Shown here piece after piece: positions 13,198-62,969 of a DNA stretch of 62,969 nucleotides. Origin of the DNA: Bacilli bacterium (GTDB lineage: Bacteria; Bacillota_I; Bacilli_A; Izemoplasmatales; Hujiaoplasmataceae); the NCBI GenBank assembly GCA_016935515.1, contig JAFGQT010000082.1:1-62969 (forward strand), given 5' to 3'. The notes beneath the pieces were generated by a model. It saw only the letters and a program-made list of their open reading frames with translations. It ran no database searches and was not told the origin of the DNA. The position numbers and the translations under genes were made by a program. The stretch's first letter is position 1, and every line of letters begins with the position of its first letter.

Positions 13198-15267
13198 ATG
13201 CGGGAGAAACTGTTGGCTATCATGACTAGACCAGATTATCGGTTCGCCGATGGTTTTCAGCTTGCCCGCTACCTGAAAGAAAAGGACGGTCGCGCAGTCC
13301 AAGCAGCATTGCTTGAACTGGAAAACGACGGTCTGATAGTCAAGACCAACCAAGGCAAATTTGGATTGGCTGAAGACATGGGCTTTGTTCGCGGGCATCT
13401 GGATCTGAAAGCTGCCGGCTATGGTTTTTTGATCGTAGAGGGCAGGGACAACGACGTTTTTATTCCGGCAAACAGAGTCATGAATGCCATGGATGGAGAT
13501 TATTGCCTGGTAAAGATCAGAAGTCAGAAACGCGACACTCGCACCGAAGGCGAAATCGTTAAGATCATCAAGCGGAATGTTGAGAAAGTAATCGGAGAGT
13601 ATTTCCAAGGCGCAATCTTTTCCAAGAATCAGCCCTCAGGTATCATATACAAGGTTGTTTCTAAACCCAGCGGATTGGTTGATCACAGTTATGTCAGCGC
13701 CAAAATAATCCGTTATTCACGGATTGGAATCCTCGATTGCGAGATTACGGAGATTTTTGGTCACAAGGATGATCCTGGAATCGAGATTATCGAAGTCGTC
13801 AAACGGCTGGACATTCCTTATGATTTTCCAGATTCGGTGCTCCAAGCGGCAGCCATGGTTCCCGAAACTATCCTTGACAGCGATTTCGAAGGCAGGGTCG
13901 ATCTCACAAATGAAATTATTTTCACGATTGATGGAGATGATACCAAAGACATCGACGACGCCATATCGATTTCAAAACTTTCAGATGGGCTCTACGAACT
14001 TGGTGTCCACATCGCCGATGTCAGTCATTATGTAAAACCGGACTCACCACTGGACAAAGAAGCTTATCAAAGAGGTACAAGCGTGTATTTGGCTGACAGA
14101 GTGATACCGATGTTGCCGAGAGCACTGTCGAACGGTATCTGTTCACTTAACCCTGAAGTATCAAGGCTCGCAATCAGTTGTACGATGAAAATCAACAAAA
14201 ATGCCGAAGTAATGGATTATCGCATCTATCCATCTGTTATTAGAAGTATCCAGCAACTGACTTACAAAGAGGCAAATAAAGTCCTTGATGGACAAGAATC
14301 GATCAAGATTAAATCGACGATCATTATCGACAAACTCAAAGTCATGCGCGAACTTGCGGAAATATTAAATCGTGTCAGGATGGAAATCGGTTCTATCGAT
14401 TTTGAGACTATCGAACCGAAAATCATGTTCGATGTCGACGGCAAAGTCAACGACATCGTGGTTCGCGAACGTGGAGTTTCAGAAAGGATCATCGAGGAGT
14501 TCATGCTGGTCGCAAACCAAGTTGTAGCGACGGAGATCGAAAGGAAAAAACTACCGTTCATATACAGGATCCATGAAGAACCAGATGCAGAAAAGCTTAA
14601 ATCACTTTTCCTGTTGGCCAAGGAACTGGGCTATATCGAAAAAATTCCCAAGCGCATCCAGCATCAAGACCTGCAAAAACTCTTGGCTGCTGTAGAGGAC
14701 ACTGAATACGACAAAGTCATCACAATGTTGATGCTTAGGTCGATGGCTAAAGCTAAGTATTCAGAAAGAAATCTAGGTCATTACGGACTTGCTTTCACCG
14801 ATTACACGCACTTTACATCACCGATAAGGCGATATCCGGATTTATTGGTTCACAGGATGTTAAGGAGTTATTTGTTCGCAGATTTTGACGATTCAGTAGT
14901 CAATGAATATGAGAAGCTGCTGCCGGACGCGGCAATATGGACTTCAAAGACAGAACGAAGATCGATGGTTGCCGAACGAGAAATCGATGACATGAAAAAA
15001 GCCGAATTCATGGAAAATAAGATCGGCGAGGAGTTTGAAGCAATCGTTGCTTCGCTCACGAGATTCGGCATGTTTGTCGAACTTCCCAACACCGTTGAAG
15101 GGCTTGTACATCTATCGACATTTCCCGAGGCGATCGAGTATGACGAGGATCGAATGATCTATCTTGGAATTTCCTCTAGAAAAGTGTATAATATAGGTAT
15201 GAAGGTTCGCGTGAAATTGATCAAGGCTGACAGGGTGTCCGGTAAGATCGATTTCGTCCTAGTTTAG
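13198..15267 (+). CDS. rnr: ribonuclease R
   Basis: The RNB catalytic motif FTIDGDDTKDIDDAISI, cold-shock-like N-terminal domains and a C-terminal S1 domain (EFEAIVASLTRFGMFVEL) are all present. Confidence 0.93.
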   Translation: MREKLLAIMTRPDYRFADGFQLARYLKEKDGRAVQAALLELENDGLIVKTNQGKFGLAEDMGFVRGHLDLKAAGYGFLIVEGRDNDVFIPANRVMNAMDGDYCLVKIRSQKRDTRTEGEIVKIIKRNVEKVIGEYFQGAIFSKNQPSGIIYKVVSKPSGLVDHSYVSAKIIRYSRIGILDCEITEIFGHKDDPGIEIIEVVKRLDIPYDFPDSVLQAAAMVPETILDSDFEGRVDLTNEIIFTIDGDDTKDIDDAISISKLSDGLYELGVHIADVSHYVKPDSPLDKEAYQRGTSVYLADRVIPMLPRALSNGICSLNPEVSRLAISCTMKINKNAEVMDYRIYPSVIRSIQQLTYKEANKVLDGQESIKIKSTIIIDKLKVMRELAEILNRVRMEIGSIDFETIEPKIMFDVDGKVNDIVVRERGVSERIIEEFMLVANQVVATEIERKKLPFIYRIHEEPDAEKLKSLFLLAKELGYIEKIPKRIQHQDLQKLLAAVEDTEYDKVITMLMLRSMAKAKYSERNLGHYGLAFTDYTHFTSPIRRYPDLLVHRMLRSYLFADFDDSVVNEYEKLLPDAAIWTSKTERRSMVAEREIDDMKKAEFMENKIGEEFEAIVASLTRFGMFVELPNTVEGLVHLSTFPEAIEYDEDRMIYLGISSRKVYNIGMKVRVKLIKADRVSGKIDFVLV

Positions 15268-15279
15268 GGGGAATTTATC

Positions 15280-15729
15280 ATGAAAGTCATCGTCAACAAC
15301 AAGAAGGTAGCGCATGATTATTTCATCCTCGAGACTTTCGAATGCGGAATTGTGCTGACCGGGACGGAAATCAAATCGATACGCCAAGGCAAGGTCTCAC
15401 TCAACGACAGTTATGCCAGAATCAAGGGTTTTGAGCTATACTTGATCAACATGCACGTATCAAAATACACGCATGGCAATATCTTCAACCATGAAGAAAA
15501 GCGCGAAAGAAAACTATTGATGGAAAAGCGAGAAATCATCAAACTTTCCCTAAGGTTGAAGACCGAAGGTCTAACACTCGTGCCTACAAAAGTGTATTTG
15601 AAAGAAGATCTATGCAAGATCGAACTTGCCTTGTGCAAGGGCAAAAAGCTTTACGACAAGCGCCAAACGGCAAAAGAAGAAGATTCATCACGTCGGCTCG
15701 AAAAGGTTCTCAAGGACTACAAAAGCTGA
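15280..15729 (+). CDS. smpB: SsrA-binding protein SmpB
   Basis: The 149-aa protein has NKKVAHDYFI...GTEIKSIR...KGKKLYDKR motifs and lies immediately upstream of the tmRNA. Confidence 0.95.
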   Translation: MKVIVNNKKVAHDYFILETFECGIVLTGTEIKSIRQGKVSLNDSYARIKGFELYLINMHVSKYTHGNIFNHEEKRERKLLMEKREIIKLSLRLKTEGLTLVPTKVYLKEDLCKIELALCKGKKLYDKRQTAKEEDSSRRLEKVLKDYKS

Positions 15730-15737
15730 CTCTCAAC

Positions 15738-16081
15738 GGGGCTGTTCTGGACTCGACAGGATAGTTCGGGTTTGACAAGCATGCGATCGGCAGATCTAAA
15801 AATGCGCGGTTAAATATAACCGGAAACCCAAATTACAGTTACGCTGCTTAAGAAGAAGTAGCGAATTCAATCCTTCCAGCCTGCGGGTTTGATTGAATTC
15901 CAGTCAGCAGGATAGCGAAATATGTCGCTGTACTAGGCATACGAGCGAGATGAACAGTGCTGGTTGGCAGATAGTTGGTTCTGTGGCAGTCTGTCAACGA
16001 GAAAATCCATGGAACTAAGCATGTAGAAAATCAAATGTCCGGCTGTTTTGGACGGGGGTTCGATTCCCCCCAGCTCCACCA
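15738..16081 (+). ncRNA. ssrA: tmRNA (SsrA), 344 nt with encoded CCA; tag ORF GNPNYSYAA*
   Basis: The 5' end is ggggctgttctggactcgacagg. The 3' end ggacgggggttcgattccccccagctccacca forms the T-arm, acceptor stem and CCA. The ttaaatataac box precedes resume codon GGA at 15822, as in the Bacillus subtilis ssrA as I recall it. Stop TAA lies at 15849-15851. Confidence 0.95.
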
Positions 16082-20191: not shown

Positions 20192-20240
20192 GATAACTAG
20201 CAATAGTTAAAAATAAATGAAAGAATATTGGAGGGAAGTA

Positions 20241-22385
20241 ATGAAAAAAGTCTTAGGATTCATGTTGTTGACGGCTTTTGCTTTTGGTTTCGTTGCCTGC
20301 CAAGGCACGACAACCACTGTGCCTACTACGACGCAGACTACAACGACGGCGGCAGGAACGACTACCACCGGAACGACTACCAATGCCGGAACAACAACAC
20401 AAAGTTCCGCAGGAACAACAACGACCACTACCACCGCAACTGAGCCACCCGTTGATTTGGTAATCAACGTAGCTGGTGAGAACGACAAACGATTGTTTAC
20501 TTACTTGCAGGCCAATCCGCTTGAAATGCCCGATGGCACAATTATCGATTCTGGAGATCTGAAGCCTCTATGGCAGTATATTCAGAACGAAGTCAATATC
20601 GAGATCGATGATGTTGCAACGCCTGGGCAAAAACCGGCAGACATGTTTGATTTAGCGGCTGCCAATCAATTCGAAGGTGCGGATATCTTCGGTGGGCCGA
20701 ATCTTGGGCAGAAAATCATGAGTGCTGGAGTTGATGGTTATTTCGTAGATTTGTCTGAGCATATGGCAGAAATGCCGAATGTCAGCGCGTATCTAGCTGC
20801 CAATCCGTTGGTCATGAGTGCCATCACAGCGTCTGACGGTGGAATCTATCATCTGCCCTACATCGCAGAAATCAACAATTACGCCAGAATGTTTCTCGGA
20901 AGATACAGTTGGGTAACCGCATTGCTTGATGGAGAAGTTAATGGAAGCCCGTTCACTTTGGAAACCGAGACTGCTACGTTGAACGTCGCTTATGAAGCTT
21001 ACTGGAAAACAGGCACAGAGACTTTACCATATGGTGGATTAAGACAAACTACAAATGTAGTCGATCTCCAAAATGCAGCCGCCACCGGTGGGGTGCTCGA
21101 TCAAGCAACCGCATTGCAGGTGTTGAAAGACTACATTGACGCGACGTATCCGACACTTGCGAAACGATCAGACTTGTATCTTGATGAAACTGGACAATAC
21201 GATATTGATGAGCTTGTAGCCTTGTGGCGTGTAATCAAGTTGTCGCCCCTTTCGCTTTCTAAAGAAGCTTACGGGTCGGCAAAACCTGGAACAGTTATAT
21301 GGCCATTCTATGCTCGCCAATCTAACTATCGTGAAGAAGTACTACGTCTAATCCTTTTCTTTGGTGGGCAAAGAGTCCACGGATCCGACTCATATGGATC
21401 AAGATTTTATCTTGATGAGAACGGCGATTTGCAGTACTCATATTTCCAAGACGATTTCTTGCAAAATCTCAATCGTATCCGTGCAATGTTCTCCGAAGGC
21501 TTGGTTGACGAAAAACTGTCCGGTGCTGCAAACACAACTAACCTCAGAACCGGGTACATTTTCAAAGACACGGTCGAAACACAATTGGAGTATGGCTTCA
21601 TGTGCTATGACTGGACTTCCTCTACAACTGCCGCTTCTGGTGGACAAGATGATGTCAAGGCATTCTTACCACCTTTGACTACAACACCGGTATCCGAAGG
21701 TGAATTCATTCATTATGTTGAAAATACCAGGGTTGTTAAACCAGACGGATGGGGCATCTCCGCAAACATCAGCGATGAAGCTCTTGATGGCGCGCTGAGG
21801 CTGTTTGATTACTTGTTCTCGGTAGAAGGAGCAAAGGTCCAGAACTATGGAACTCCAGATTTATGGGTTCCTGATCAATTCTATACTAATCCAACTGACG
21901 GCGTTCAAGGACCATTATTCTCAACTTGGACTCGGGACAAAGCAACTGCAGTCACCAATGGCGACATATCATCATTCTTGCGAGATCATATTGGTGCTCA
22001 GATTCCGATTGGCTATCAAAAAGTAATTGGATTCGAATTGCAGTCAACCTCAGCGAATGGAATGTGGAGCTGGCAGCTTTACTATGGTGCCAATGATGGT
22101 GATGGTGTGATGATGAACTCCTACAGTGCTGAAAATCCATATTATCAACTTGTGCCGCCGATTTTCTCGCTGACCAGTGCGGAAAATGCCTTGCTGGCAA
22201 CGACTACAACCATGACAAGTGACGCACAGTTAATTGACCGCATGATGGCTTTCCTAGGTTCAAAGACTGGTGAAGGAATTCCTCAGACTTCTGAAGAAGT
22301 CAAAGCAATGTTCATTGCAGCCGGAGTAGGAACCTATATTTACATTTATCAACTAGCATTCAGTAGAATGTCAGGCGACGAATAA
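20241..22385 (+). CDS. extracellular solute-binding lipoprotein, large LplA-type, with a Thr-rich linker
   Basis: The ATG at 20241 has RBS ggaggg. The signal peptide and lipobox are MKKVLGFMLLTAFAFGFVAC, followed by a ~50-aa Thr-rich tract and a ~640-aa SBP-like body. Confidence 0.75.
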   Translation: MKKVLGFMLLTAFAFGFVACQGTTTTVPTTTQTTTTAAGTTTTGTTTNAGTTTQSSAGTTTTTTTATEPPVDLVINVAGENDKRLFTYLQANPLEMPDGTIIDSGDLKPLWQYIQNEVNIEIDDVATPGQKPADMFDLAAANQFEGADIFGGPNLGQKIMSAGVDGYFVDLSEHMAEMPNVSAYLAANPLVMSAITASDGGIYHLPYIAEINNYARMFLGRYSWVTALLDGEVNGSPFTLETETATLNVAYEAYWKTGTETLPYGGLRQTTNVVDLQNAAATGGVLDQATALQVLKDYIDATYPTLAKRSDLYLDETGQYDIDELVALWRVIKLSPLSLSKEAYGSAKPGTVIWPFYARQSNYREEVLRLILFFGGQRVHGSDSYGSRFYLDENGDLQYSYFQDDFLQNLNRIRAMFSEGLVDEKLSGAANTTNLRTGYIFKDTVETQLEYGFMCYDWTSSTTAASGGQDDVKAFLPPLTTTPVSEGEFIHYVENTRVVKPDGWGISANISDEALDGALRLFDYLFSVEGAKVQNYGTPDLWVPDQFYTNPTDGVQGPLFSTWTRDKATAVTNGDISSFLRDHIGAQIPIGYQKVIGFELQSTSANGMWSWQLYYGANDGDGVMMNSYSAENPYYQLVPPIFSLTSAENALLATTTTMTSDAQLIDRMMAFLGSKTGEGIPQTSEEVKAMFIAAGVGTYIYIYQLAFSRMSGDE

Positions 22386-52722: not shown

Positions 52723-55599
52723 ATGAAGAAGTATTTGCCAAGCATTACGACAGGTTTTGTCCTGCTTGTTTTGACAGGGCTCACGATCTGGCAGAGCTTC
52801 GAGGCTGATTTGCATTCATCGGTAGTCCATATCTATTACATTACAGTTATTTTCATCGCATTTTGGATGCGCAAATGGCTTCTCTGGGCGACAGGATACA
52901 TCGTCTTGATGCATATGGCTTTGGATGCGATCACAACTCAAAGTTTCCCCTTGTTTGCTTTCGGTGAATCAGTTCTTTTGATTATGCTTGCACTCTTTCT
53001 GCATTATACTTTCGTAAACCAGGAAAAAAGCGAAACCATCGCCAAGCTATTCAAACAGGTAGCTGACGACTCGATATTTGCGCAAATCATCACCGACACT
53101 GATGGCAAGATTGTCTATGTCAATCCATATTTTGCGGGATTGAACCGAGTTGAGCCGGAAAAGATGATTGGTCAGGATCTAGCTTCTTTGATTGAAGTTA
53201 CCCATGACACGAAATTCAAGGACATGATTGAATCACTGAGACAGACTGGATTTTTCACTGAAACCGAATTGTGTTTGAGCGATAACGGTAAGGAATTACC
53301 GATGCTGGCAAGCGGAGTCGTCATCAATGATACAGAGAACAAACCAGAATTTTACGCGATATGTGCGATAGACATAACAGATCAAAAGCAGTTATCTAAC
53401 GACCTGAAGAAAAACAAGGATCGACTTGAGAGCATCATTGAAGCAACAAGAATCGGAACTTGGGAGTGGGACATCGAATCGGGCAAGACAATATTCGATG
53501 ACCGATGGGCGGACATGGCAGGCTACACCTTGGAAGAACTATCGCCAACCACTATTGATACATGGAACAACCTGCTCCATCCTGATGACAAAGAAATCGT
53601 CGAAACTTCTTTGGCGAGAATTTTTGCCCAGAAGGAAGAGTACTACAATGTCATAGTAAGGATGAAACACAAAAATGGCAATTTCATCTGGGTCCATGAC
53701 CGTGGGAAGGTCATCAAATGGTCGGACACAGAGAAACCGTTGTTGATGATGGGGACGCATACTGATGTTACCGAGGCGAAGCTAGCTGAAGAACAGATCA
53801 AATACAGCCATCGTCTTATGCAATATGTCATTGAAAATGCCAATGCGGCAATTGCGATTCATGACAAGGATCTAAAATACTTATATGTGAGCCAGAATTA
53901 TTTACGCCAGTATGACGTTAAAGAAAAAAATATCATCGGTAAACATCACTACGATGTTTTCCCTGACCTGCCTCAGAAATGGCGGGACGTCCATCAACGA
54001 ACGCTCAAGGGGGAAACCGTTAGGGGAGACAAAGATATTTTTGTCCGTAGCGACGGCAAGGAGTTTTGGACTCGCTGGGAATCGAGACCATGGTATGAAC
54101 TTGATGGTTCAATTGGTGGCCTCATAATCTACACCGAAGTAATCAATGAGCGTCTTGAAACGGAAAAACGGCTTCAGGAATCGCAAGATATGTTGCTTCG
54201 AGTTATGGACAATTTGCCTATTGGCATCGCCCTGGCAAAGTTGGATCCCGAATATACATTCACTTATATGAACGAAAACTTTCCAGTTTTTTACGGTGCA
54301 CCAAGAAAAGACTTGGAAAAACCTGGGTTTTTCTGGAATGCGGTTTTTGAAGATCCAAAATACAGGGAAGCGGTGAGGAAAACTTTTGAACAGGATGTTA
54401 ACTCCAGTGCTGCTTCCAGTAAACATTGGAAACGGATCCCAATCGCAAGAAAAGGCAAAAAGACTAGATATGTCGATGCTGTGGTAACCTCGATGATGAA
54501 CGGTGAATATTTCATATCAATGGTCAACGACGTGACTGAACAAGTAGAAAAACAAACCGAAATCGAACGTATCAGCATGCATGATTCGTTGACCGGATTG
54601 TTCAACCGCAACGTTTTCACGTCACGGCTAACTGAATTGGACGAAGTCATGAACTATCCACTCAGCATCATGATGATCGACATCAACGGACTCAAGCTGA
54701 TCAACGATGCCTTCGGTTTTCAAAAAGGTGATCAGGCAATCAAAATGATTGCAGAAGCAATCAAGAAAGTGTTGGAGAACAAGAATTCTGTGATTGCAAG
54801 ACTTGGCGGAGGAGAATTTGGGGCCATTCTTTCTGGTACAAATTTTGAAGAAGCTCAGAAAGTAAAAGATGCAATAATTGCCAGTATCACAAAACTGAAA
54901 CTTTCTAACATGGAGCTTGGCGTCGTGATTGGAGTGGCAACCAAGTTAAACGACGAAATCTCAATCCAAGAACTACTTAAGAACGCTGAAGACGACATGC
55001 TCAAGCGCAAGATATTGGTTGGTCGTGGCATCCGCAACAGTGCCATCACGAGCATCTTCAAAACGTTGACTGAAAAATACGAAGAAGAGAAACTCCATTC
55101 TCAACGTGTCAGCATTTTCTGCCGTCAGATCGGCGAAGCAATGCAGCTCAGTCGTGATGATGTCAAAGAGCTTGAACTCGCAGGATTGTTCCATGACATC
55201 GGTAAAATATCGCTTCGTGATGATGTCTTAAAAAAACCAGGAAAACTAACTGATGAAGAATACGCTGAAGTAAAGAAGCATGCGGAGATAGGCTATCAGA
55301 TTCTTCGCGCAGCAGACAAATATTCCGGTCTGGCCGAACATGCCTTGTGTCACCATGAGAGATGGGACGGAAAAGGTTATCCAAATGGGCTCAAGGGCGA
55401 AGAGATTCCTTTCTTTTCGCGGATTATTTGCGTAGCAGACGCATTTGAAGCAATGACTTCAGACCGACCCTACAGAAAAGCCAATAAACTCGAATTTGCA
55501 GCTGAGGAATTGAAGCGTTGTGCCGGCACTCAGTTTGATGCAACGATCGTTGATGTTTTTGTCAACAAAGTATTGAAATTACCGCCAAAACTCGATTGA
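52723..55599 (+). CDS. membrane-anchored multi-PAS / GGDEF (degenerate, GGGEF) / HD-GYP c-di-GMP signalling protein
   Basis: RBS gaggagg lies upstream. The N-terminus has about 4 TM helices, followed by about four PAS-like segments (for example GTWEWDIESGKTIFDDRWADMAGY). The GGDEF domain has RLGGGEFG at 54805-54819. The HD-GYP domain has LFHDIGK and HHERWDGKGYPNGL. Confidence 0.85.
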   Translation: MKKYLPSITTGFVLLVLTGLTIWQSFEADLHSSVVHIYYITVIFIAFWMRKWLLWATGYIVLMHMALDAITTQSFPLFAFGESVLLIMLALFLHYTFVNQEKSETIAKLFKQVADDSIFAQIITDTDGKIVYVNPYFAGLNRVEPEKMIGQDLASLIEVTHDTKFKDMIESLRQTGFFTETELCLSDNGKELPMLASGVVINDTENKPEFYAICAIDITDQKQLSNDLKKNKDRLESIIEATRIGTWEWDIESGKTIFDDRWADMAGYTLEELSPTTIDTWNNLLHPDDKEIVETSLARIFAQKEEYYNVIVRMKHKNGNFIWVHDRGKVIKWSDTEKPLLMMGTHTDVTEAKLAEEQIKYSHRLMQYVIENANAAIAIHDKDLKYLYVSQNYLRQYDVKEKNIIGKHHYDVFPDLPQKWRDVHQRTLKGETVRGDKDIFVRSDGKEFWTRWESRPWYELDGSIGGLIIYTEVINERLETEKRLQESQDMLLRVMDNLPIGIALAKLDPEYTFTYMNENFPVFYGAPRKDLEKPGFFWNAVFEDPKYREAVRKTFEQDVNSSAASSKHWKRIPIARKGKKTRYVDAVVTSMMNGEYFISMVNDVTEQVEKQTEIERISMHDSLTGLFNRNVFTSRLTELDEVMNYPLSIMMIDINGLKLINDAFGFQKGDQAIKMIAEAIKKVLENKNSVIARLGGGEFGAILSGTNFEEAQKVKDAIIASITKLKLSNMELGVVIGVATKLNDEISIQELLKNAEDDMLKRKILVGRGIRNSAITSIFKTLTEKYEEEKLHSQRVSIFCRQIGEAMQLSRDDVKELELAGLFHDIGKISLRDDVLKKPGKLTDEEYAEVKKHAEIGYQILRAADKYSGLAEHALCHHERWDGKGYPNGLKGEEIPFFSRIICVADAFEAMTSDRPYRKANKLEFAAEELKRCAGTQFDATIVDVFVNKVLKLPPKLD

Positions 55600-55685: not shown

Positions 55686-55714
55686 TTGACTATAAATATT
55701 AATATATTTATAAT
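55686..55714 (+). promoter_or_regulatory. near-consensus sigma-A promoter upstream of the giant lipoprotein gene
   Basis: TTGACT (55686-55691), a 17-nt spacer and TATAAT (55709-55714). Confidence 0.6.
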
Positions 55715-55737
55715 TTCTATATATACTGAGAATGATT

Positions 55738-55778
55738 GCGCAGCATAGTCGAATAATCGAGCATGCTGCGCAATTTTT
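55738..55778 (+). promoter_or_regulatory. terminator-like hairpin inside the 5' leader of the giant gene (candidate attenuator)
   Basis: gcgcagcat (55738-55746) pairs perfectly over 9 bp with atgctgcgc (55763-55771), with an inner tcga/tcga extension, followed by aaTTTTT. It lies about 20 nt downstream of the predicted -10 and 74 nt upstream of the ATG. Confidence 0.5.
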
Positions 55779-55851
55779 GAAGCCAGGACTCGAAAATCGA
55801 ATATTTGAACCACTTAATTCTGTATTATAGCTATTTTTTAGGGGGACAATC

Positions 55852-58800
55852 ATGAAAAGATTATTTGTGGTATTTTTTTTGGTGTTTTTTACGCTCGGAC
55901 TTGTGGGATGTGACTTGTTCGGTGGAGCGACAACTTCGCAAGTTGTCACTACTGAAACTTCAACCACGATCACAGAACAAACGACGACAGAGACGTCTGA
56001 TTTGACGTTGCGACTGATGCAGATTTATGAACTTGCTTTGGAGGCCGAAGCCTTTTCTGGCACATATGAAGAGTGGCTTGAGACTGTCAGAGGTCCTGAA
56101 GGCGCTCCAGGAGCAGATGGCCAAGAAGTTCTGATGCAGGTTGCGTCTGGTTATATCCAGTGGAAGCACGAGGGAGATACAACCTGGACTAATCTTATCG
56201 CTCTCACTGCTTTGGCCGGAGCTGATGGAATCGATGGGAAGGAACTCACATTGCAAGTTGCCGAAGGCAAGATTCAGTGGCAATATGTTGGAGATACCAC
56301 TTGGTCAGATCTGATAGATCTTTCTGTAATTACCGGAGCTGATGGAATCGATGGAAAAGAAGTAGCTTTCCAGGTCTTGGACGGCCATATCCAATGGCAG
56401 TACGTGGGTGAGACCAGCTGGGTTGACTTGGTGGATCTTGTTACGCTTACCGGAGAAGCTGGGACCAATGGAAAAGAAGTTGTTATGCAAGTGTCAGGTG
56501 GTTACGTTCAATGGCAATATGTCGGAGACACGACATGGACGAATCTGATTTCAATAGCGACCATTACAGGTGCCGATGGTATTGATGGTACAAATGGCGT
56601 TGATGGAAAGGAAGTCATCCTGCAAGTTACGGATGAATACATCCAATGGCAATACGTCGGTGATACGACGTGGACTAATCTGATTGCCTTGTCAACTCTG
56701 ACGGGCGCAGATGGTCTTGATGGAACCAATGGCACCGACGGACGTGAAGTGACGTTCCAAGTAGCCGATGATTATATCAAATGGCAATATGTCGGAGACA
56801 CGACATGGACAAATCTGATTTCAATAGCGACAATCACAGGTGCCGATGGAATTGATGGCACAAATGGCGTTGATGGAAAGGAAGTCATCTTACAAGTTAC
56901 GGATGACTACATCCAATGGCAGTATGTTGGCGACACAACATGGACGAACTTGATTGCTTTGTCAACTCTGACGGGCGCAGATGGTCTTGACGGAACCAAT
57001 GGCACCGACGGCCGTGAAGTCACGTTCCAGGTAGCCGATGATTATATCAAATGGCAATATGTCGGCGACACGACATGGACAAATCTGATTTCAATAGCGA
57101 CTATCACAGGTGCTGATGGAATACCCGTGACGTTGAGAGTTGATTCAGATTACATTCAGTGGCAGTATGTTGGCGACACAACGTGGACGAACTTGATTGC
57201 CTTGTCAACTCTGACGGGCGCAGATGGTCTTGACGGAACCAATGGCACCGACGGCCGTGAAGTCACTTTCCAAGTAGCCGATGATTATATCAAATGGCAA
57301 TATGTCGGAGACGCGACTTGGACGAATCTGATTTCGATAGCGACAATCACAGGGGCCGATGGAATACCCGTGACGTTGAGAGTTGATTCAGACTATATTC
57401 AGTGGCAGTATGTTGGCGACACAACGTGGACTGATTTAATCGCTTTATCTGATCTTACAGGTGCTGCTGGCAGTGATGGAAAAGAAGTTGAAATGCAATT
57501 GGCTGATGGTTACATCCAATGGCATTATGTCGGTGAAACTACATGGTTGAATCTGGTTTCCGTAGCTTCGATTACCGGAGCTGATGGAATTGACGGTAAG
57601 GAAGTGACTTTCCAAACTTCAACTACCCATATTCAGTGGCAATATGTTGGCGATACTGTCTGGACCGATCTGATTGAACTCGCTACCTTGATTGGACCAC
57701 AAGGAGTTCAAGGCGTAGGGATTTCATCGGCGGTAGTAAATGAAATCGGGGAACTGGTAATCACATATACAGATGCAACGGTAGTCAATCTTGGCCAGTT
57801 GCTCAAGGTTTGCCAAGTGGTGTACAAGGACTACAACGGATATATTCTTTCTGTACAACATGTTTTGTCAGGCAATAACGCGGTTGTTCCAACAGATCCT
57901 TCGCGAGGCGGGTATGATTTTTCTGGCTGGGATCAAGCTTCAACCGATATCGTTGCCGACTTGGAGATCAACGCTACTTATGCAAAACAGGCGTACACAG
58001 TTAACTTCTATGCGTATGATGGGACTCTGCTTAAAACTGAATCAGTGCTTTATCTTGATGGCGCTACTGCACCGGTTGCACCAAGCATTACGGGGAAGAC
58101 ATTTGTCGGATGGTCCGAAGATTATGCTGCTGTAGACGCAAATTTGGATATTGATGCTGAGTACGAGACCAACACTTATCATGTTGATTTTTATGATTAT
58201 AATGGTTCGCTGATGTCTGCTCAAGTAGTAGTGCACGGCGGATCAGCCATTGCTCCGGAATCTCCGGCAAGAGAAGGTTATGATTTCTTAGGCTGGGATC
58301 AGCCATATCTGAACATCACGACAGATCTGGCAATCTACGCCACTTATACTCTAGAGACTTATGCAATAACATATTATGATCGCGAGTATGCGATAATCTC
58401 AACTGAGTCAGTCGAAAGGGGACAGGATGGGACTCCACCTGTGGCTCCGGCAATTGAGGGCTATCGCTTCATTGGTTGGGACAAACCCGTTGAACACGTG
58501 ATGTACGATTTGGATGTGATTGCGCTCTATGAAATCATCGTTTATGAAGTTGTCTTTCGAAATTATGATGGTTCGATTTTTGATATCCAGCATGTTCAAC
58601 ACGGATCAGATGCATCCGATCCTGGATCTCCGACAAAAGTTGGCTGGAGTTTCACAGGTTGGAACCAGACTTATATCTCGGTAACTGAGGATCTTGATAT
58701 TGCGCCAGTGTTCAGTCAACTAAGTTATCAAGTCGATTTCTATGATGAACTTGGCAATTTGGTCGATTCACAGACAGTATTACACGGTGAAGATGCGGTT

Positions 58801-61800
58801 GACCCGTATCCTACAACACCTTCATTGATTAAAACTGGCTACGAGTTTGTTGGCTGGGACGAGACTTTGAAAAATGTGACTGCGAATCTAACATGTCACC
58901 CGATATATGAGATCATCACATATGAAGTCACGTTTGTTGATGATAATTATCATGTGTTTGACGTTCAGACAATTAACCATGGGAGCACTGCTTATTCACC
59001 TTTGACACCATCGAAGACAGGCTATGATTTTGTTGGTTGGGACACTGACTTCTCGAGTGTCACTGCTGATCTTATTGTAATGGCAACTTATGAGATTCGT
59101 TCATTCGTTGTCGATTTCTACGATGCCCAATCAAACCTGTTGGTTTCAGAATCCGTAAATTACATGGATTCTGCGACAGAACCGATGGCACCGATCATCA
59201 TAGGTTATGATTTTGTTTCTTGGGACAAAGATTTCAGTCAGGTCACAAGCTCAATGTCAATTTATCCGATTTATCAGATCAAGACTTATGAAGTGGTCTT
59301 TCATGACAATGATGGTGCTATCTTGAGTTCACAGACCATCTATCATGGTGATGATGCAGTTGCGCCAACGGACATGGATCTTTTTGGCTACACGTTCAAC
59401 GGTTGGGACACGATTTATACGGATGTGGTTTGTGATCTTGAAGTCCATCCATTATATACGGTCAATGAATACAGCGTTGTTTTCGAGGAGAATGGCGGTT
59501 CGTCAGTGACGGATCGTAGCAACGTGACCCACGGTTCAACAATCAGCCTCGAAATTCCCGTTCAGTTGGGATATAGATTCACGGGCTGGTATTTTGGCGA
59601 CACCGAGAACGATGCCAAGTTCTATGCGACTACTCCCGTTACTGGAGATCTGACCTTATATGCTAGGTGGGAGCTCGCCAGTTATGATGTCATCTTCTAT
59701 GATTATGATGATACGATCCTAAGAAAGAGCCTGATTGGTCATGGGTATACGGCTATCGCGCCTGACGATCCTTCTCGTGTCGGCTACACCTTCGAAGGTT
59801 GGGATACGTCTTTCCATGTTGTGGTGACGGATTTGTCTATTCATCCGATCTATATCGCTATAGACTATCCTTTAACAGTGGATGAAAATGGCGGGACATA
59901 CGTTCCGGATATGTTGATAGCTTATGACACTTCAATACCGTTATTGGTCGAACCTTCGCGGAACGGCTATACTTTTGTCGGGTGGTTCAAGGATTCATTG
60001 TTGACAATCCCGTTCGTTAATGACGGATCAACTGAATTAATGCCACTCAACGGACTGTCTATTTATGCCAATTGGGATATCAACCAATATACGATGAGCT
60101 TTGAAGAAAATGGCGGTTCAACAATCGATGATATCACTTTGGATTACAATACCGTAATTCAAGAGCCGACGGAACCAACGCGGACCGGCTATACTTTCAA
60201 GGGCTGGTTCAGTGATCCTGATTTTTCCACCGAGTATGAATTCACAAACATGCCAGCTGAAAATATCACACTTTACGCCAAGTGGCAAATAAACGAATAT
60301 GAAGTATATTATTTCGCTGAAAATGTCAATCTCAGCGAACCAGGATTGATCAACATTGATACCAACGATTTCTTTGTCCAAATAAGTGGTGGTGGAGATC
60401 ATACGATTGCCTTGACCAATGAAGGCAGGGTTTTCACATGGGGTTATAATAATTGGCGTCAACTCGGAGATGGAACAGTTCTAACGCGTACGAGTCCGGT
60501 GGAGATTACAGCCAATCTGCCATTAAACACTGGAGAAAAAGTAGTAGTCGTTGGAGCTGGCAGTCTGCATACGGTCGTATTGACATCTGAGGGACGGATT
60601 TTTACCTGGGGCAACAATGATTATGGACAGCTAGGTAACGACCAGACGAGTTGGATAACGATTAATGACATCACGGCAAGATTTGACTTGGGAAGTGAAG
60701 AAAGAGTTATCAAACTGTCTGTCGGAGATTATCATTCCGGAGTTATCACATCCGCTGGACGAGTCTTCGTTTGGGGTAGCAATTCTTATGGCAAACTGGG
60801 AGACGGTACCGCAATAAACAGTCTCGTTCCGATTGAGATAACACAACAATTCAGTCTGACTGGAGACGAAATCATCAGTTCGCTGGCTTTGGGAGCAGTG
60901 CATTCAGCGGCGGTTACCAGTTATGGCAGAGTCTTCACATGGGGATATAACAATTATGGACAACTTGGTGATGGACTGACGACTTCTTTGGCCTCGCCGA
61001 CAGAGATAACTAGTAACTTTGGATTGGCTATCGATGAATATGTAACTGATATTGATGTCAATGGAAATTTCTCATTGGCAATCACCTCGGACAACAGAAT
61101 TTTCACCTGGGGATTGAACTCCGAATATCAGCTCGGTGATGGAACCAACATCTCGAAATTGCTGCCAAATGAGATCACCCACATGTTTGACTTGGCAGAA
61201 GGGGAGACTTTCGCTTCCGCAAGTCTGGGAACGATTTTCGCAGGTGTATCGACATCTCTAGAAAGAGTGTTCACCTGGGGTTATAATGGCTACAGTCAAT
61301 TGGGCACGGGAACAACACTTTCGGGTCATTCGCCATTTGAAATTACCGGTAACTTCAACATGAGTTGTGAAGATGAAGGAGTTGTGGAAGTTTCCATGGG
61401 GGCTTCGCATTCCACAGCTTTAACATCCAGCGGCCAGATTCATGTTTGGGGTAAGAATTTTTATGGTCAGCTTGGAATAGGCACGACAACCATAAGCGCC
61501 TATCCAGTTCAGCCTAAGTTGTACCATTCCATGCTGCTTGAGAAGTTTGAGGTTTATGCATACAATGCGACATTGACGGAATATATTCCGACAAGAACCG
61601 GCTATAGTTTTGACCAATGGTACACTGACGTCGCGATGACCAATCCTTATGTCTTCTCGACTATGCCGGCAGATGATGTCTATCTCTATTCGGAATGGAT
61701 AGTCAACAGTTACACCATTTCCTTTGAGGAAAATGGCGGTTCGGAAGTCGTTGATATCACTCAGGATTACAAGACAACGGTCGTGGCTCCGACAGAACCA

Positions 61801-62969
61801 ACCAGAACAGCGTATACTTTTATTGGTTGGTTTGCGGATATCGATTTGACGGTCCCTTATACTTTCTCGACGATGCCGGCAGAAAACATCACTTTATACG
61901 CCAAATGGACCAATGTCCCTTACACGATCAGTTTTGAGGAAAATGGCGGCAGCGAAGTTACAGATATAACAGCGTTTTACAATGAACCGGTCGATGCGCC
62001 TGCAGATCCTACTAGAGAAGGATACACTTTCATGGGTTGGTTTGCGGATGCAGGACTTACGACTCCATATGAGTTCACAACCATGCCGCTTGACGGAACT
62101 ACCGTTTATGCGGATTGGGAGATCAATCAATATTCGCTCAGTTTTAATGCGATAGAAGAATACTTGAACCCACAGTTTGAAAATGGAGCAAATCATAGTT
62201 TGTTGTTGACACAGGACAACAGGTTGTATGCGGTTGGCTATAACATTTACGGTCAACTAGGAAATGGAACCTTGACCAACACGACAACGAAAATCGATAT
62301 TACTGATTTCCTAGGACTTGGAGAACTGGAAAGCATTCAAAAGATTGTTGCCGCTTATCACTCAAGTTTTGTTTTGACAACTGATGGACGCTTGTTGGTA
62401 ACTGGAATAAATAGTGATGGCCAACTGGGCATCGGGGATCTTGTCAACCGCAATGTTTTTTGCGATATCACTGCCAATTTCAACCTCGCGACCGGAGAGA
62501 CGATTACCAACGTCTTCTCCGGAGGTTTGGTGACATTTGTATTGACATCTGAAGGCCGTATCTTTGGCTTTGGCGATAACTACGTCGGTTCAGTCGGCGA
62601 CGGTACTAGCAATAATGACCGGACTTTACCTGTGGATATCACCGCTAATTTCGATCTTGAAATAGGTGAAACGATCACTTCTGTAGAGATTGGCTATTAT
62701 CACGCTTATGCCATTACTTCAAATCACCGCGTCTTTAGTTGGGGCAGAAATACTTACGGTCAACTTGGTATCGGATCTTCAGCAGATCAATCATTACCTA
62801 TTGATATCACCGCCAACTTCCCGCTTGAAGTGGATGACTCGATTACAATGGTATCTGCGGGTTTAGATTTTGGAATTGCTCTCAGCGAATCGGGAAGAGT
62901 CTTTACTTGGGGGTACAACTATTACGGGATGTTAGGGGTCAACTATACAGGAAATATTTACTCTCCGCG
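55852..62969 (+). CDS. giant surface lipoprotein (more than 2,372 aa, 3'-truncated by the window end): collagen-like/WQY repeats, Listeria-Bacteroides repeats and two RCC1 propellers
   Basis: RBS aggggga precedes the ATG at 55852. MKRLFVVFFLVFFTLGLVGC is a signal peptide with lipobox LVGC. My manual translation of this frame is stop-free to position 62969. The ORF is absent from the supplied track because it has no stop, and all track ORFs in this span are other-frame or antisense shadows. Confidence 0.9.
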   Translation, partial: MKRLFVVFFLVFFTLGLVGCDLFGGATTSQVVTTETSTTITEQTTTETSDLTLRLMQIYELALEAEAFSGTYEEWLETVRGPEGAPGADGQEVLMQVASGYIQWKHEGDTTWTNLIALTALAGADGIDGKELTLQVAEGKIQWQYVGDTTWSDLIDLSVITGADGIDGKEVAFQVLDGHIQWQYVGETSWVDLVDLVTLTGEAGTNGKEVVMQVSGGYVQWQYVGDTTWTNLISIATITGADGIDGTNGVDGKEVILQVTDEYIQWQYVGDTTWTNLIALSTLTGADGLDGTNGTDGREVTFQVADDYIKWQYVGDTTWTNLISIATITGADGIDGTNGVDGKEVILQVTDDYIQWQYVGDTTWTNLIALSTLTGADGLDGTNGTDGREVTFQVADDYIKWQYVGDTTWTNLISIATITGADGIPVTLRVDSDYIQWQYVGDTTWTNLIALSTLTGADGLDGTNGTDGREVTFQVADDYIKWQYVGDATWTNLISIATITGADGIPVTLRVDSDYIQWQYVGDTTWTDLIALSDLTGAAGSDGKEVEMQLADGYIQWHYVGETTWLNLVSVASITGADGIDGKEVTFQTSTTHIQWQYVGDTVWTDLIELATLIGPQGVQGVGISSAVVNEIGELVITYTDATVVNLGQLLKVCQVVYKDYNGYILSVQHVLSGNNAVVPTDPSRGGYDFSGWDQASTDIVADLEINATYAKQAYTVNFYAYDGTLLKTESVLYLDGATAPVAPSITGKTFVGWSEDYAAVDANLDIDAEYETNTYHVDFYDYNGSLMSAQVVVHGGSAIAPESPAREGYDFLGWDQPYLNITTDLAIYATYTLETYAITYYDREYAIISTESVERGQDGTPPVAPAIEGYRFIGWDKPVEHVMYDLDVIALYEIIVYEVVFRNYDGSIFDIQHVQHGSDASDPGSPTKVGWSFTGWNQTYISVTEDLDIAPVFSQLSYQVDFYDELGNLVDSQTVLHGEDAVDPYPTTPSLIKTGYEFVGWDETLKNVTANLTCHPIYEIITYEVTFVDDNYHVFDVQTINHGSTAYSPLTPSKTGYDFVGWDTDFSSVTADLIVMATYEIRSFVVDFYDAQSNLLVSESVNYMDSATEPMAPIIIGYDFVSWDKDFSQVTSSMSIYPIYQIKTYEVVFHDNDGAILSSQTIYHGDDAVAPTDMDLFGYTFNGWDTIYTDVVCDLEVHPLYTVNEYSVVFEENGGSSVTDRSNVTHGSTISLEIPVQLGYRFTGWYFGDTENDAKFYATTPVTGDLTLYARWELASYDVIFYDYDDTILRKSLIGHGYTAIAPDDPSRVGYTFEGWDTSFHVVVTDLSIHPIYIAIDYPLTVDENGGTYVPDMLIAYDTSIPLLVEPSRNGYTFVGWFKDSLLTIPFVNDGSTELMPLNGLSIYANWDINQYTMSFEENGGSTIDDITLDYNTVIQEPTEPTRTGYTFKGWFSDPDFSTEYEFTNMPAENITLYAKWQINEYEVYYFAENVNLSEPGLINIDTNDFFVQISGGGDHTIALTNEGRVFTWGYNNWRQLGDGTVLTRTSPVEITANLPLNTGEKVVVVGAGSLHTVVLTSEGRIFTWGNNDYGQLGNDQTSWITINDITARFDLGSEERVIKLSVGDYHSGVITSAGRVFVWGSNSYGKLGDGTAINSLVPIEITQQFSLTGDEIISSLALGAVHSAAVTSYGRVFTWGYNNYGQLGDGLTTSLASPTEITSNFGLAIDEYVTDIDVNGNFSLAITSDNRIFTWGLNSEYQLGDGTNISKLLPNEITHMFDLAEGETFASASLGTIFAGVSTSLERVFTWGYNGYSQLGTGTTLSGHSPFEITGNFNMSCEDEGVVEVSMGASHSTALTSSGQIHVWGKNFYGQLGIGTTTISAYPVQPKLYHSMLLEKFEVYAYNATLTEYIPTRTGYSFDQWYTDVAMTNPYVFSTMPADDVYLYSEWIVNSYTISFEENGGSEVVDITQDYKTTVVAPTEPTRTAYTFIGWFADIDLTVPYTFSTMPAENITLYAKWTNVPYTISFEENGGSEVTDITAFYNEPVDAPADPTREGYTFMGWFADAGLTTPYEFTTMPLDGTTVYADWEINQYSLSFNAIEEYLNPQFENGANHSLLLTQDNRLYAVGYNIYGQLGNGTLTNTTTKIDITDFLGLGELESIQKIVAAYHSSFVLTTDGRLLVTGINSDGQLGIGDLVNRNVFCDITANFNLATGETITNVFSGGLVTFVLTSEGRIFGFGDNYVGSVGDGTSNNDRTLPVDITANFDLEIGETITSVEIGYYHAYAITSNHRVFSWGRNTYGQLGIGSSADQSLPIDITANFPLEVDDSITMVSAGLDFGIALSESGRVFTWGYNYYGMLGVNYTGNIYSP
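56092..57720 (+). repeat. 13 tandem coding modules (about 36-45 aa each): (Gly-X-Y)2-5 linker plus V.FQV.D.YIQWQYVGDTTWTNLI.L..LTG
   Basis: I counted thirteen [IV][QK]W[QKH][YH][VE]G[DE]T..W..L cores. The linkers include GPEGAPGADGQE, GADGIDGKE, GADGIDGTNGVDGKE and GADGLDGTNGTDGRE, and the block ends with GPQGVQGVG. Confidence 0.85.
56511..57432 (+). repeat. higher-order DNA tandem repeat (units of 270, 270 and 243 bp plus a partial unit) within the module array
   Basis: atggcaatatgtcgg(a/c)gac(a/g)cgac recurs at 56511, 56781, 57051 and 57294. My manual alignment of units 1 and 2 gives about 24 differences in 270 bp, mostly at third codon positions. Confidence 0.85.
57805..60294 (+). repeat. 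13 tandem Listeria-Bacteroides repeat (Flg_new-type) domains
   Basis: Units of about 61-72 aa recur with the pattern Y.V.F.D..G..L..Q.V.HG..A..P..P...GY.F.GWD......DL.I...Y. The last units are the canonical form FEENGGS...P.R.GYTF.GWF.D......F..MP...I.LYAKW. Confidence 0.8.
60295..61544 (+). repeat. RCC1-type beta-propeller, seven blades
   Basis: There are seven repeats of H..ALT..GRVFTWG.N.YGQLGDGT, for example HTIALTNEGRVFTWGYNNWRQLGDGT and HSTALTSSGQIHVWGKNFYGQLGIGT. Confidence 0.8.
61545..62127 (+). repeat. 3 further Listeria-Bacteroides repeat domains
   Basis: Examples are SFEENGGSEVVDITQDY...PTRTAYTFIGWFAD...TMPAENITLYAKW and two relatives. Confidence 0.8.
62128..62969 (+). repeat. 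second RCC1-type propeller (at least 5 blades before the window ends)
   Basis: Blades include HSLLLTQDNRLYAVGYNIYGQLGNGT, LTTDGRLLVTGINSDGQLGIGD, LTSEGRIFGFGDNYVGSVGDGT, ITSNHRVFSWGRNTYGQLGIGS and LSESGRVFTWGYNYYGMLG. Confidence 0.8.

Follow-up and report, generated by a model that had tools for sequence, protein, structure and literature searches.

The 62,969-bp contig JAFGQT010000082.1 of the Bacilli assembly GCA_016935515.1, which over its whole length is the window analysed here, ends in a giant gene on the plus strand. No stop was found by translation in the 2,372 codons (7,118 nt) from the ATG at 55852 to the contig end at 62969, and the probability of such a stop-free run arising by chance was estimated as ~1e-65 with the base composition of the window. 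An in-frame stop at 55828-55830 lies 7 codons upstream of the ATG with no start codon between, so that ATG 55852 is the sole possible start of the gene. The contig itself stops at the window edge, and the database copy of the product (P0001) has 2,373 amino acids (aa). The same neighbourhood was found in a second assembly, from a related strain (Logan run SRR13394437), in which the upstream DNA is identical and the first 229 aa are 98% identical. A first-pass annotation of the sequence had read the frame as open from this ATG to the window edge, behind a ribosome binding site (RBS) AGGGGGA, and had taken it for one real gene; the intact frame, the unique start and the second assembly bear this out. 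It had also remarked that the gene is missing from the list of open reading frames (ORFs). The omission is real but is no anomaly, because the ORF lister leaves out ORFs that run off either end, a rule of the tool and not of biology, and gives only short overlapping ORFs of 90-120 aa here. Judged from sequence, the open-ended 7.1-kb frame is a real gene, and its product is a giant surface protein with a predicted lipid anchor.

The RBS and the parts of the product, of which some were placed by hidden Markov models (HMMs) or by AlphaFold2 (AF2) models, are as follows.

55840..55846, plus strand: RBS AGGGGGA, 5 nt ahead of ATG 55852, read from the sequence
55852..55911, plus strand: lipoprotein signal peptide, aa 1-20, MKR-LFVVFFLVFFTLG-LVGC with Cys20, from the hydrophobic core and lipobox
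55912..56001, plus strand: Thr/Glu-rich low-complexity spacer, aa 21-50, from the translation
56005..56091, plus strand: helical hairpin opening the stalk, aa 52-80 (IYELA...GTYEEWLETVRG), from the AF2 model and a conserved motif
56092..57717, plus strand: stalk of 13 modules, aa 81-622, with Gly-X-Y runs, beta units and phrog_19976 matches
57718..57810, plus strand: stalk cap, aa 623-653 (GISSAVVNEIGELVITYTDATVVNLG), from the translation
57811..60285, plus strand: 13 Flg_new (Listeria-Bacteroides / InlB B-repeat) domains, aa 654-1478, from Pfam, NCBIfam and a self-derived HMM
60364..61515, plus strand: RCC1-like propeller 1, aa 1505-1888, 7 blades, closed, from Pfam, AF2 and Foldseek
61501..62118, plus strand: 3 Flg_new domains, aa 1884-2089, from the self-derived HMM
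62161..62969, plus strand: RCC1-like propeller 2, aa about 2104-2372 (blades from aa 2123), 4 full blades and a partial fifth, cut by the contig end

This domain order, from anchor and spacer through stalk, repeats and propeller to further repeats and a second propeller, is exactly the one that the first-pass annotation had stated. Like other bacterial lipoproteins of the Lgt/Lsp pathway, the giant protein begins with a positively charged n-region, followed by a hydrophobic core and by a lipobox of the type [LVI][ASTVI][GAS]C, all of which are kept in relatives; the signal peptide and the lipobox LVGC had been claimed before, and L-V-G-C with Cys20 was indeed read at the N-terminus. Genes for lgt and lsp do not lie within the window. 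The design of a lipobox followed by a Thr-rich spacer also occurs in two other lipoproteins of the window. A 722-aa ORF at 20217-22385 (plus strand), for which Pfam gave no match, has a lipobox FVAC and a Thr-rich spacer; its true start is probably the internal MKKVLGF, and it appears to be an unannotated lipoprotein adjoining sugar-utilisation genes. In the AF2 model of the giant protein the stalk-start hairpin consists of two helices (aa 53-64 and 72-80), and its motif, IYxLA...GTYEEWLE(S/T)V(R/K)G, is kept in 27 of the collected relatives.

The stalk has 13 modules, the number given earlier for the WQY modules. Each is built of 2-5 Gly-X-Y triplets and a three-stranded beta unit of ~30 aa (EVxxQV / YIQWQY / TWTNLI), and the module periods of 39, 45 and 36 aa differ solely in the number of triplets (3, 5 or 2). 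The cap motif also closes the stalk in the relatives P0005, P0119 and P0192. Modules 5-11 include copies that are 97-100% identical, and tandem DNA units of 270 bp and 243 bp with a 92-94% match lie within 56502-57431; because of these near-identical copies, the count of 13 is provisional and could have been collapsed or expanded by short-read assembly.

Domain databases were nearly silent on the stalk. Pfam at E<=10 on aa 1-683 gave no Collagen match and noise only (HNH, WWE_4, DUF4594), NCBIfam left the stalk region without a match, a PDB sequence search with the stalk module gave 0 matches, and a Foldseek search of the stalk against PDB gave no fold match (best E 0.28). The Pfam Collagen model fails on the giant protein because the Gly-X-Y runs have just 2-5 triplets. 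The term collagen-like, as used in the first-pass annotation, is therefore not backed by a Pfam match, but the strict Gly-X-Y phasing behind it holds. In 113 proteins with 653 modules, the linkers that are in register have a length of 3n+1 in 289 of 298 cases, and 895 of the 952 linker glycines (94%) stand in one phase. Such phasing points to a triple helix, since a mere spacer has no reason for such a rule, and relatives with longer linkers reach Collagen repeats that Pfam detects. When the stalk was modelled as a monomer by AF2, the beta units had predicted local distance difference test (pLDDT) values of 73-82 and the Gly-X-Y linkers values below about 50. The low values of the linkers would fit segments that fold only as a triple helix, and are no proof of it. 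With ~51 Gly-X-Y triplets and 13 beta units, the composition of the stalk suggests a length of tens of nanometres, which is an estimate and not a computed value.

The kinship of the module is with phage. The family phrog_19976 matches the stalk 13 times (E=4e-114), tail-fibre models in BFVD match it at E 2e-8 to 1e-4, one of them an L-shaped tail fibre, and by tblastn it hits genes annotated as tail fibres in cultured Erwinia, Stenotrophomonas and Pseudomonas phages. These phage fibres, including that of Erwinia phage vB_EamP-S6, share 29-48% identity with a 249-aa query from the stalk, over 34-99% of its length. Like the giant protein, phage tail-fibre shafts alternate a beta module of ~35 aa with Gly-X-Y runs. 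The module also shares a chain with Gp34_trimer and Peptidase_S74 (P0140), with a T7 tail-fibre N-domain, with Phage_tail_C and with long Collagen repeats. The earlier proposal of a fibre-like stalk is thus strengthened, as the array matches phage tail-fibre families and is found in one chain with domains of trimeric fibres. Phage fibre proteins, however, carry N-domains for virion attachment and C-domains that bind receptors or act as chaperones, and they lack a lipobox, whereas in the giant protein the module stands behind a lipoprotein signal, in a chromosomal gene, and carries a Flg_new/RCC1 head.

An indexed search with the stalk module gave 816 matches, and an exhaustive profile search gave 5,293 cluster representatives at E<=1e-3, of which 2,298 were at <=1e-10. 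One genome per GTDB species was scanned with the stalk-start motif; 98 loci were confirmed, and the best 80 were kept. Nearly all of the loci belong to Izemoplasmatales, Acholeplasmataceae, Haploplasma, Mariniplasma, Anaeroplasma, Erysipelotrichaceae and unnamed Bacilli, whose genomes have several paralogues each. Of 82 ORFs from other species, 70 have a strict lipoprotein signal ahead of the stalk, compared with 0 of 385 control windows, and the motif lies at a median of 76 residues from the ORF start. The domains found behind the stalk elsewhere are Flg_new/RCC1, BspA-type leucine-rich repeats (LRRs), a trypsin-PDZ (HtrA-like) protease, SBP_bac_5, FGE-sulfatase and DUF6273. Because related genomes fuse lipobox and stalk to such varied surface domains, the stalk appears to be a general display scaffold, and for this reason the functional specificity of the giant protein would lie in its Flg_new/RCC1 part. 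Among culturable bacteria, the same device is present in A. laidlawii (P0002, P0050), Izemoplasma sp. B36 (P0009), Hujiaoplasma nucleasis (P0112) and Mycoplasmatota WC30 (P0007, P0008). There is also a large group of proteins of ~470-560 aa (P0200, P0161) in which the module alternates with long Collagen repeats and a C-terminal domain of ~130 aa follows. P0161 has a lipobox-type signal (VAGC); in P0200 a signal LSAGC was seen by eye, which the lipobox pattern did not call. From their sequences, these proteins look like small collagen-stalked surface proteins.

Beyond the cap the giant protein consists of two domain types. Pfam Flg_new (PF09479) matched at E=3e-137 (447 bits against a cut-off of 27), TIGR02543 scored 206 bits against a cut-off of 20.95, and the self-derived HMM placed 16 repeats, 13 + 3, which are the numbers claimed earlier for the Listeria-Bacteroides repeats. 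Their closest solved structure is the InlB B-repeat (PDB 2y5p). The mutual identity of the repeats is mostly 20-50%, which indicates that they are old. Two subtypes can be told apart: a short one of 57 aa (repeats 1-9 and 11) ending in D-L-x-I-x-A-x-Y, and a long one of 66-70 aa (repeats 10 and 12-16) with ENGGS and MPxxxxTLYAKW. Next to the propellers, every repeat belongs to the long subtype.

For the propellers, Pfam RCC1 (PF00415) matched at E=8e-99 (324 bits against a cut-off of 21.7) and WD40_RLD (PF25390) at E=2e-129 (433 bits against 150). The AF2 model of the segment Flg_new-propeller-Flg_new had a mean pLDDT of 89.3 and 28 strands, that is, 7 blades of 4, and propeller 1 superposed on UVR8 in Foldseek with a template modelling (TM) score of 0.92 and a root-mean-square deviation of 2.0 A. 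UVR8 was also matched by phmmer (1.8e-64), and the solved structures nearest in sequence are without exception eukaryotic RCC1-like domains. Like these domains, which are defined by seven tandem blades of ~51-56 aa each, propeller 1 has seven tandem blades in a closed beta-propeller. The first-pass annotation had described a 7-blade RCC1 propeller and a second one open at the edge, in agreement with the 7 blades of propeller 1 and the 4 full blades and partial fifth of propeller 2; the two share 37% identity. Of the checks that it had proposed, the Pfam HMM search found Flg_new and RCC1 far above their cut-offs (and no Collagen), and AF2 on segments gave a high-confidence propeller 1 and a stalk monomer of low confidence overall.

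Although the combination had not been recognised at first, it is not unique, since at least 12 database proteins share the layout and the Flg_new/RCC1 cassette has been published (PMC4449606). A search with the whole fragment found giant proteins in Acholeplasma laidlawii (3,741 aa), Mycoplasmatota WC30, Izemoplasma sp. B36 and many metagenome-assembled genomes (MAGs). When the three repeat HMMs (W, stalk module; F, Flg_new; R, RCC1 blade) were mapped, the layout in these at least 12 relatives was lipobox, W(n), F(n) and then [R7-F(n)]x2-4, usually closed by a single Flg_new. The giant protein reads W13-F13-R7-F3-R>=5, with the second propeller cut at the edge. Because the relatives share this layout, it likely runs on for at least 2 more blades and one Flg_new, and a full length of ~2,550 aa or more is likely from this comparison. 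The same layout is found in the A. laidlawii protein P0002 (3,741 aa, named 'InlB B-repeat-containing protein' at NCBI), P0003-P0006, P0010-P0013 and P0016-P0017. Proteins of this type are 34-45% identical to the giant protein, and P0003 covers 94% of it. They differ in having W2-W22 and 2-4 propellers, some of them with an extra Flg_new before the stalk, and their genes show no conserved synteny. No experimental study of any of them came up in the searches.

In honeybee-gut Bifidobacterium there are 7-24 genes for RCC1 surface proteins per genome (Ellegaard et al. 2015, PMC4449606). These proteins have Flg_new upstream of every RCC1 domain, ~7 repeats in a domain and 2-4 such domains in a protein; they are surface-anchored, vary greatly in copy number and often lie at contig borders (PMC4449606). 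The giant protein likewise has Flg_new upstream of every RCC1 domain, at least 2 such domains and ~7 repeats. The Bifidobacterium proteins are attached to peptidoglycan by a C-terminal LPxTG sortase anchor, with no N-terminal stalk mentioned (PMC4449606), whereas the giant protein has an N-terminal lipobox and a Gly-X-Y/WQY stalk and comes from Bacilli/Mycoplasmatota, not Actinomycetota. LPxTG is probably absent from it, because full-length relatives of the same layout end in Flg_new without LPxTG. The new part is the predicted stalk of phage tail-fibre-type modules, the binding cassette of Flg_new and RCC1 having been described already.

Listeria internalins share the Flg_new/B-repeat domain with the giant protein but have an LRR internalin domain, which it lacks. 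An identity as internalin was rejected, as NF033189 (internalin_A) gave 216 bits against 1,600 and NF033188 195 against 1,050, with only the B-repeat part matching.

In streptococcal Scl1/Scl2, Bacillus BclA, collectins and C1q, a trimer-forming Gly-X-Y stalk holds globular binding heads off the surface. Scl1/Scl2 and BclA have long uninterrupted Gly-X-Y tracts, a single head domain and LPxTG or exosporium attachment. The giant protein differs from Scl and BclA in its very short Gly-X-Y runs broken by beta units, in its predicted lipid anchor and in the >1,700 aa that lie beyond the stalk. Our literature searches found no paper combining Acholeplasma, RCC1 and lipoprotein, none with the motif 'IQWRY', none citing the MAG or run accessions, and neither a functional follow-up nor a ligand for any bacterial surface RCC1 protein.

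Outside the giant gene the window is ordinary chromosome, with RNase R, SmpB, the transfer-messenger RNA (tmRNA), glycolysis genes and a polysaccharide-utilisation run, and no phage genes were found in the 55 kb that precede it. The nearest named relatives of the RNase R are ~56-64% identical and come from Izemoplasmatales and Acholeplasmataceae MAGs; by this evidence the host is an uncultured Bacilli lineage close to Izemoplasmatales and Acholeplasmatales, and the gene is predicted to be chromosomal and stand-alone. Orthologues of the giant gene lie in unrelated contexts without conserved neighbours, for which reason such genes are taken as stand-alone. Immediately upstream on the same strand, 52723-55599 (plus strand) encodes a 958-aa protein with multiple PAS, GGDEF and HD-GYP domains; a functional link to this cyclic di-GMP protein was dropped, as the orthologues are without this neighbour. 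The tmRNA gene at 15738-16081 (plus strand), with the tag peptide GNPNYSYAA, comes right after an SmpB-sized ORF (15280-15729) and RNase R (13198-15267), and the three form a standard trans-translation cluster. Between 25585 and 51980 (plus strand) there is a same-strand carbohydrate run with DUF4962, heparinase II/III and alginate-lyase-like, GH63/trehalase-like, alpha-amylase, GH4 and GH65 genes, which also holds a lipoprotein solute-binding protein with adjoining permease-sized ORFs. The gene content of this run suggests a polysaccharide-foraging lifestyle. Two contigs with orthologues of the giant gene, L083 and L084, have a second Flg_new gene a few kb off (L083, 17707-22335, minus strand, 1,542 aa; L084, 21669-23693, minus strand, 674 aa).

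Two further features lie between the cyclic di-GMP gene and the RBS.

55686..55714, plus strand: promoter-like site TTGACT-17-TATAAT, a consensus match only (11/12), upstream of the hairpin
55734..55780, plus strand: GC-rich hairpin with a 13-bp outer stem, then a U-run, from RNA folding

The leader folds with a minimum free energy of -35.8 kcal/mol over 141 nt (z = -2.55), and the hairpin is plain in the fold. The hairpin region is 100% identical in the second assembly. It was not called by the terminator scanner, and an Rfam search of the 5' leader gave no family match, riboswitches included. The hairpin probably terminates the upstream PAS-GGDEF-HD-GYP gene; alternatively, it may act as an attenuator in the leader of the giant gene.

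In three assemblies there is a break at or within the giant gene, which we attribute to its near-identical repeats. The 40-kb Logan contig of SRR13394437 stops 229 codons into the gene, inside the repeats, and in the MAG GCA_016937095.1 the neighbour gene is on a 3-kb contig that ends just before it. The 3' end was reached neither in these two nor in JGI metagenome contigs, where an exact-match scan with the last 57 bases gave no match and a protein-level scan with the second propeller gave only relatives at 23-28% identity. In the GTDB species genomes, the best match in the scan with the stalk-start motif had 65% identity, and the genome of the window did not appear among the matches.

We consider it fairly probable that the giant protein forms a fibre with a lipid anchor, probably as a homotrimer, and that this fibre displays binding propellers and acts as a multivalent long-reach binder. 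The signal peptide would be cut at the lipobox, and Cys20, judging by the motif, would be diacylated and inserted into the membrane. The Thr-rich spacer and the helical hairpin would lead to the 13-module stalk, in which a short Gly-X-Y run would alternate with a three-stranded beta unit in each module, as in phage tail-fibre shafts. Three chains would most likely join along the stalk into a homotrimeric fibre tens of nanometres long with three lipid anchors. Beyond the cap, each chain would form a flexible arm of beta-grasp Flg_new domains with at least 2 7-bladed RCC1-type propellers as ligand-binding heads. In this bouquet of collectin or C1q style, the trimeric stalk would give multivalent, long-reach binding to a particle, a polymer or another cell. 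The role as an adhesin or in particle binding that the first-pass annotation had proposed is plausible; lipidation, trimerisation, geometry and binding role are what we infer.

Several observations weigh against a trimeric binding fibre. The AF2 model of the stalk is of low confidence overall (mean pLDDT 66.5, predicted TM score 0.35). The Gly-X-Y runs of 2-5 triplets are proline-poor and fall below the Pfam Collagen model, and runs so short could not by themselves hold a triple helix. Monomers are the normal state of Flg_new and RCC1 domains. Another domain, with a function of its own or for anchoring, may lie in the missing C-terminus. The literature searches found no report of lipidation, surface exposure, trimerisation or binding for the giant protein or any relative. 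A relative's contig, L084, encodes Amidase_3/LysM proteins, so that not every host of this protein family need be wall-less.

The same short runs, and the failure of Pfam Collagen on them, would also be expected if the stalk were a monomeric beads-on-a-string spacer, with Gly-X-Y as short polyproline-II-like linkers between independent beta units and no trimer. This would suit the beta units that fold alone in the AF2 monomer, the monomeric types of the domains downstream and the single-residue linkers of some relatives (P0104). It gives no reason, however, for a glycine at every third position and for linkers that grow in 3-residue steps (the 289 of 298 linkers and 94% of glycines above), nor does it agree with a module that is co-chained with phage-fibre trimerisation and chaperone domains and with long Collagen repeats. 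We regard the monomeric spacer as unlikely, though still a serious competitor. A mainly structural coat, glycocalyx- or S-layer-like, in which the repeats would be bulk and spacing for a cell with little or no wall, is improbable to a greater degree. The occurrence of several paralogues with the stalk in one genome (WC30 and Izemoplasma B36 have three loci each), very diverse C-terminal domains on the stalk and repeat numbers that vary freely among relatives could all be expected of a coat, and the closest named relatives of the RNase R are MAGs of Izemoplasmatales, a group described as wall-less (PMC8397711). Against this, all the solved cases listed of RCC1-type propellers and of Flg_new/InlB B-repeats are interaction domains, the propellers have stayed whole 7-blade units whose two copies have diverged to 37% identity and were not homogenised, and relatives display enzymes and solute-binding proteins on the same stalk, which are functional heads and not filler.

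The strong matches to phage tail families, the breaks of three assemblies at or in the gene and its near-identical internal repeats could also raise the suspicion of a phage or prophage gene for a tail fibre or receptor-binding protein, of an assembly chimera or of a pseudogene. These explanations are largely refuted, and we give them hardly any weight. A prophage fibre was rejected on the housekeeping and sugar-metabolism context upstream, on the 55 kb free of phage genes and on an N-terminal lipoprotein signal in place of a virion-attachment domain; such a signal is not expected on a virion fibre and is kept in 70 of 82 homologues. A pseudogene or chimera was rejected on the 2,372 open codons with their chance of ~1e-65, on the independent assembly with an identical promoter region and a 98% identical N-terminus, and on the occurrence of the same domain layout in complete genomes.

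The giant gene alone is a modest result, which adds one member to a family, as yet unstudied, of giant surface proteins built of repeats. Its stalk module ties phage tail fibres to surface lipoproteins of free-living Izemoplasma- and Acholeplasma-like bacteria, where it is apparently a standard scaffold for many surface domains, and marks a gap in domain databases. We put forward, tentatively and with somewhat more doubt than belief, that the stalk is a domesticated phage tail-fibre shaft which in Izemoplasmatales, Acholeplasmatales and related reduced Bacilli now serves to display domains in general, as a homotrimeric stalk with a lipid anchor. If this is true, it would be a bacterial counterpart of the collectin/C1q design, with propellers, LRRs, proteases, solute-binding proteins and other heads mounted tens of nanometres above the membrane, and bacteria with little or no wall would have a kind of surface appendage that has not been described before; the module would make up a large family (at least 5,000 cluster representatives) without a Pfam model or a solved structure. 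Because short-read assemblies systematically break on such genes, stalk-bearing giant genes would be under-represented and truncated in MAG annotations. The stalk may offer a handle on how these bacteria, which are reported degraders of extracellular polymers and DNA in sediments, reach and hold their substrates or partners.

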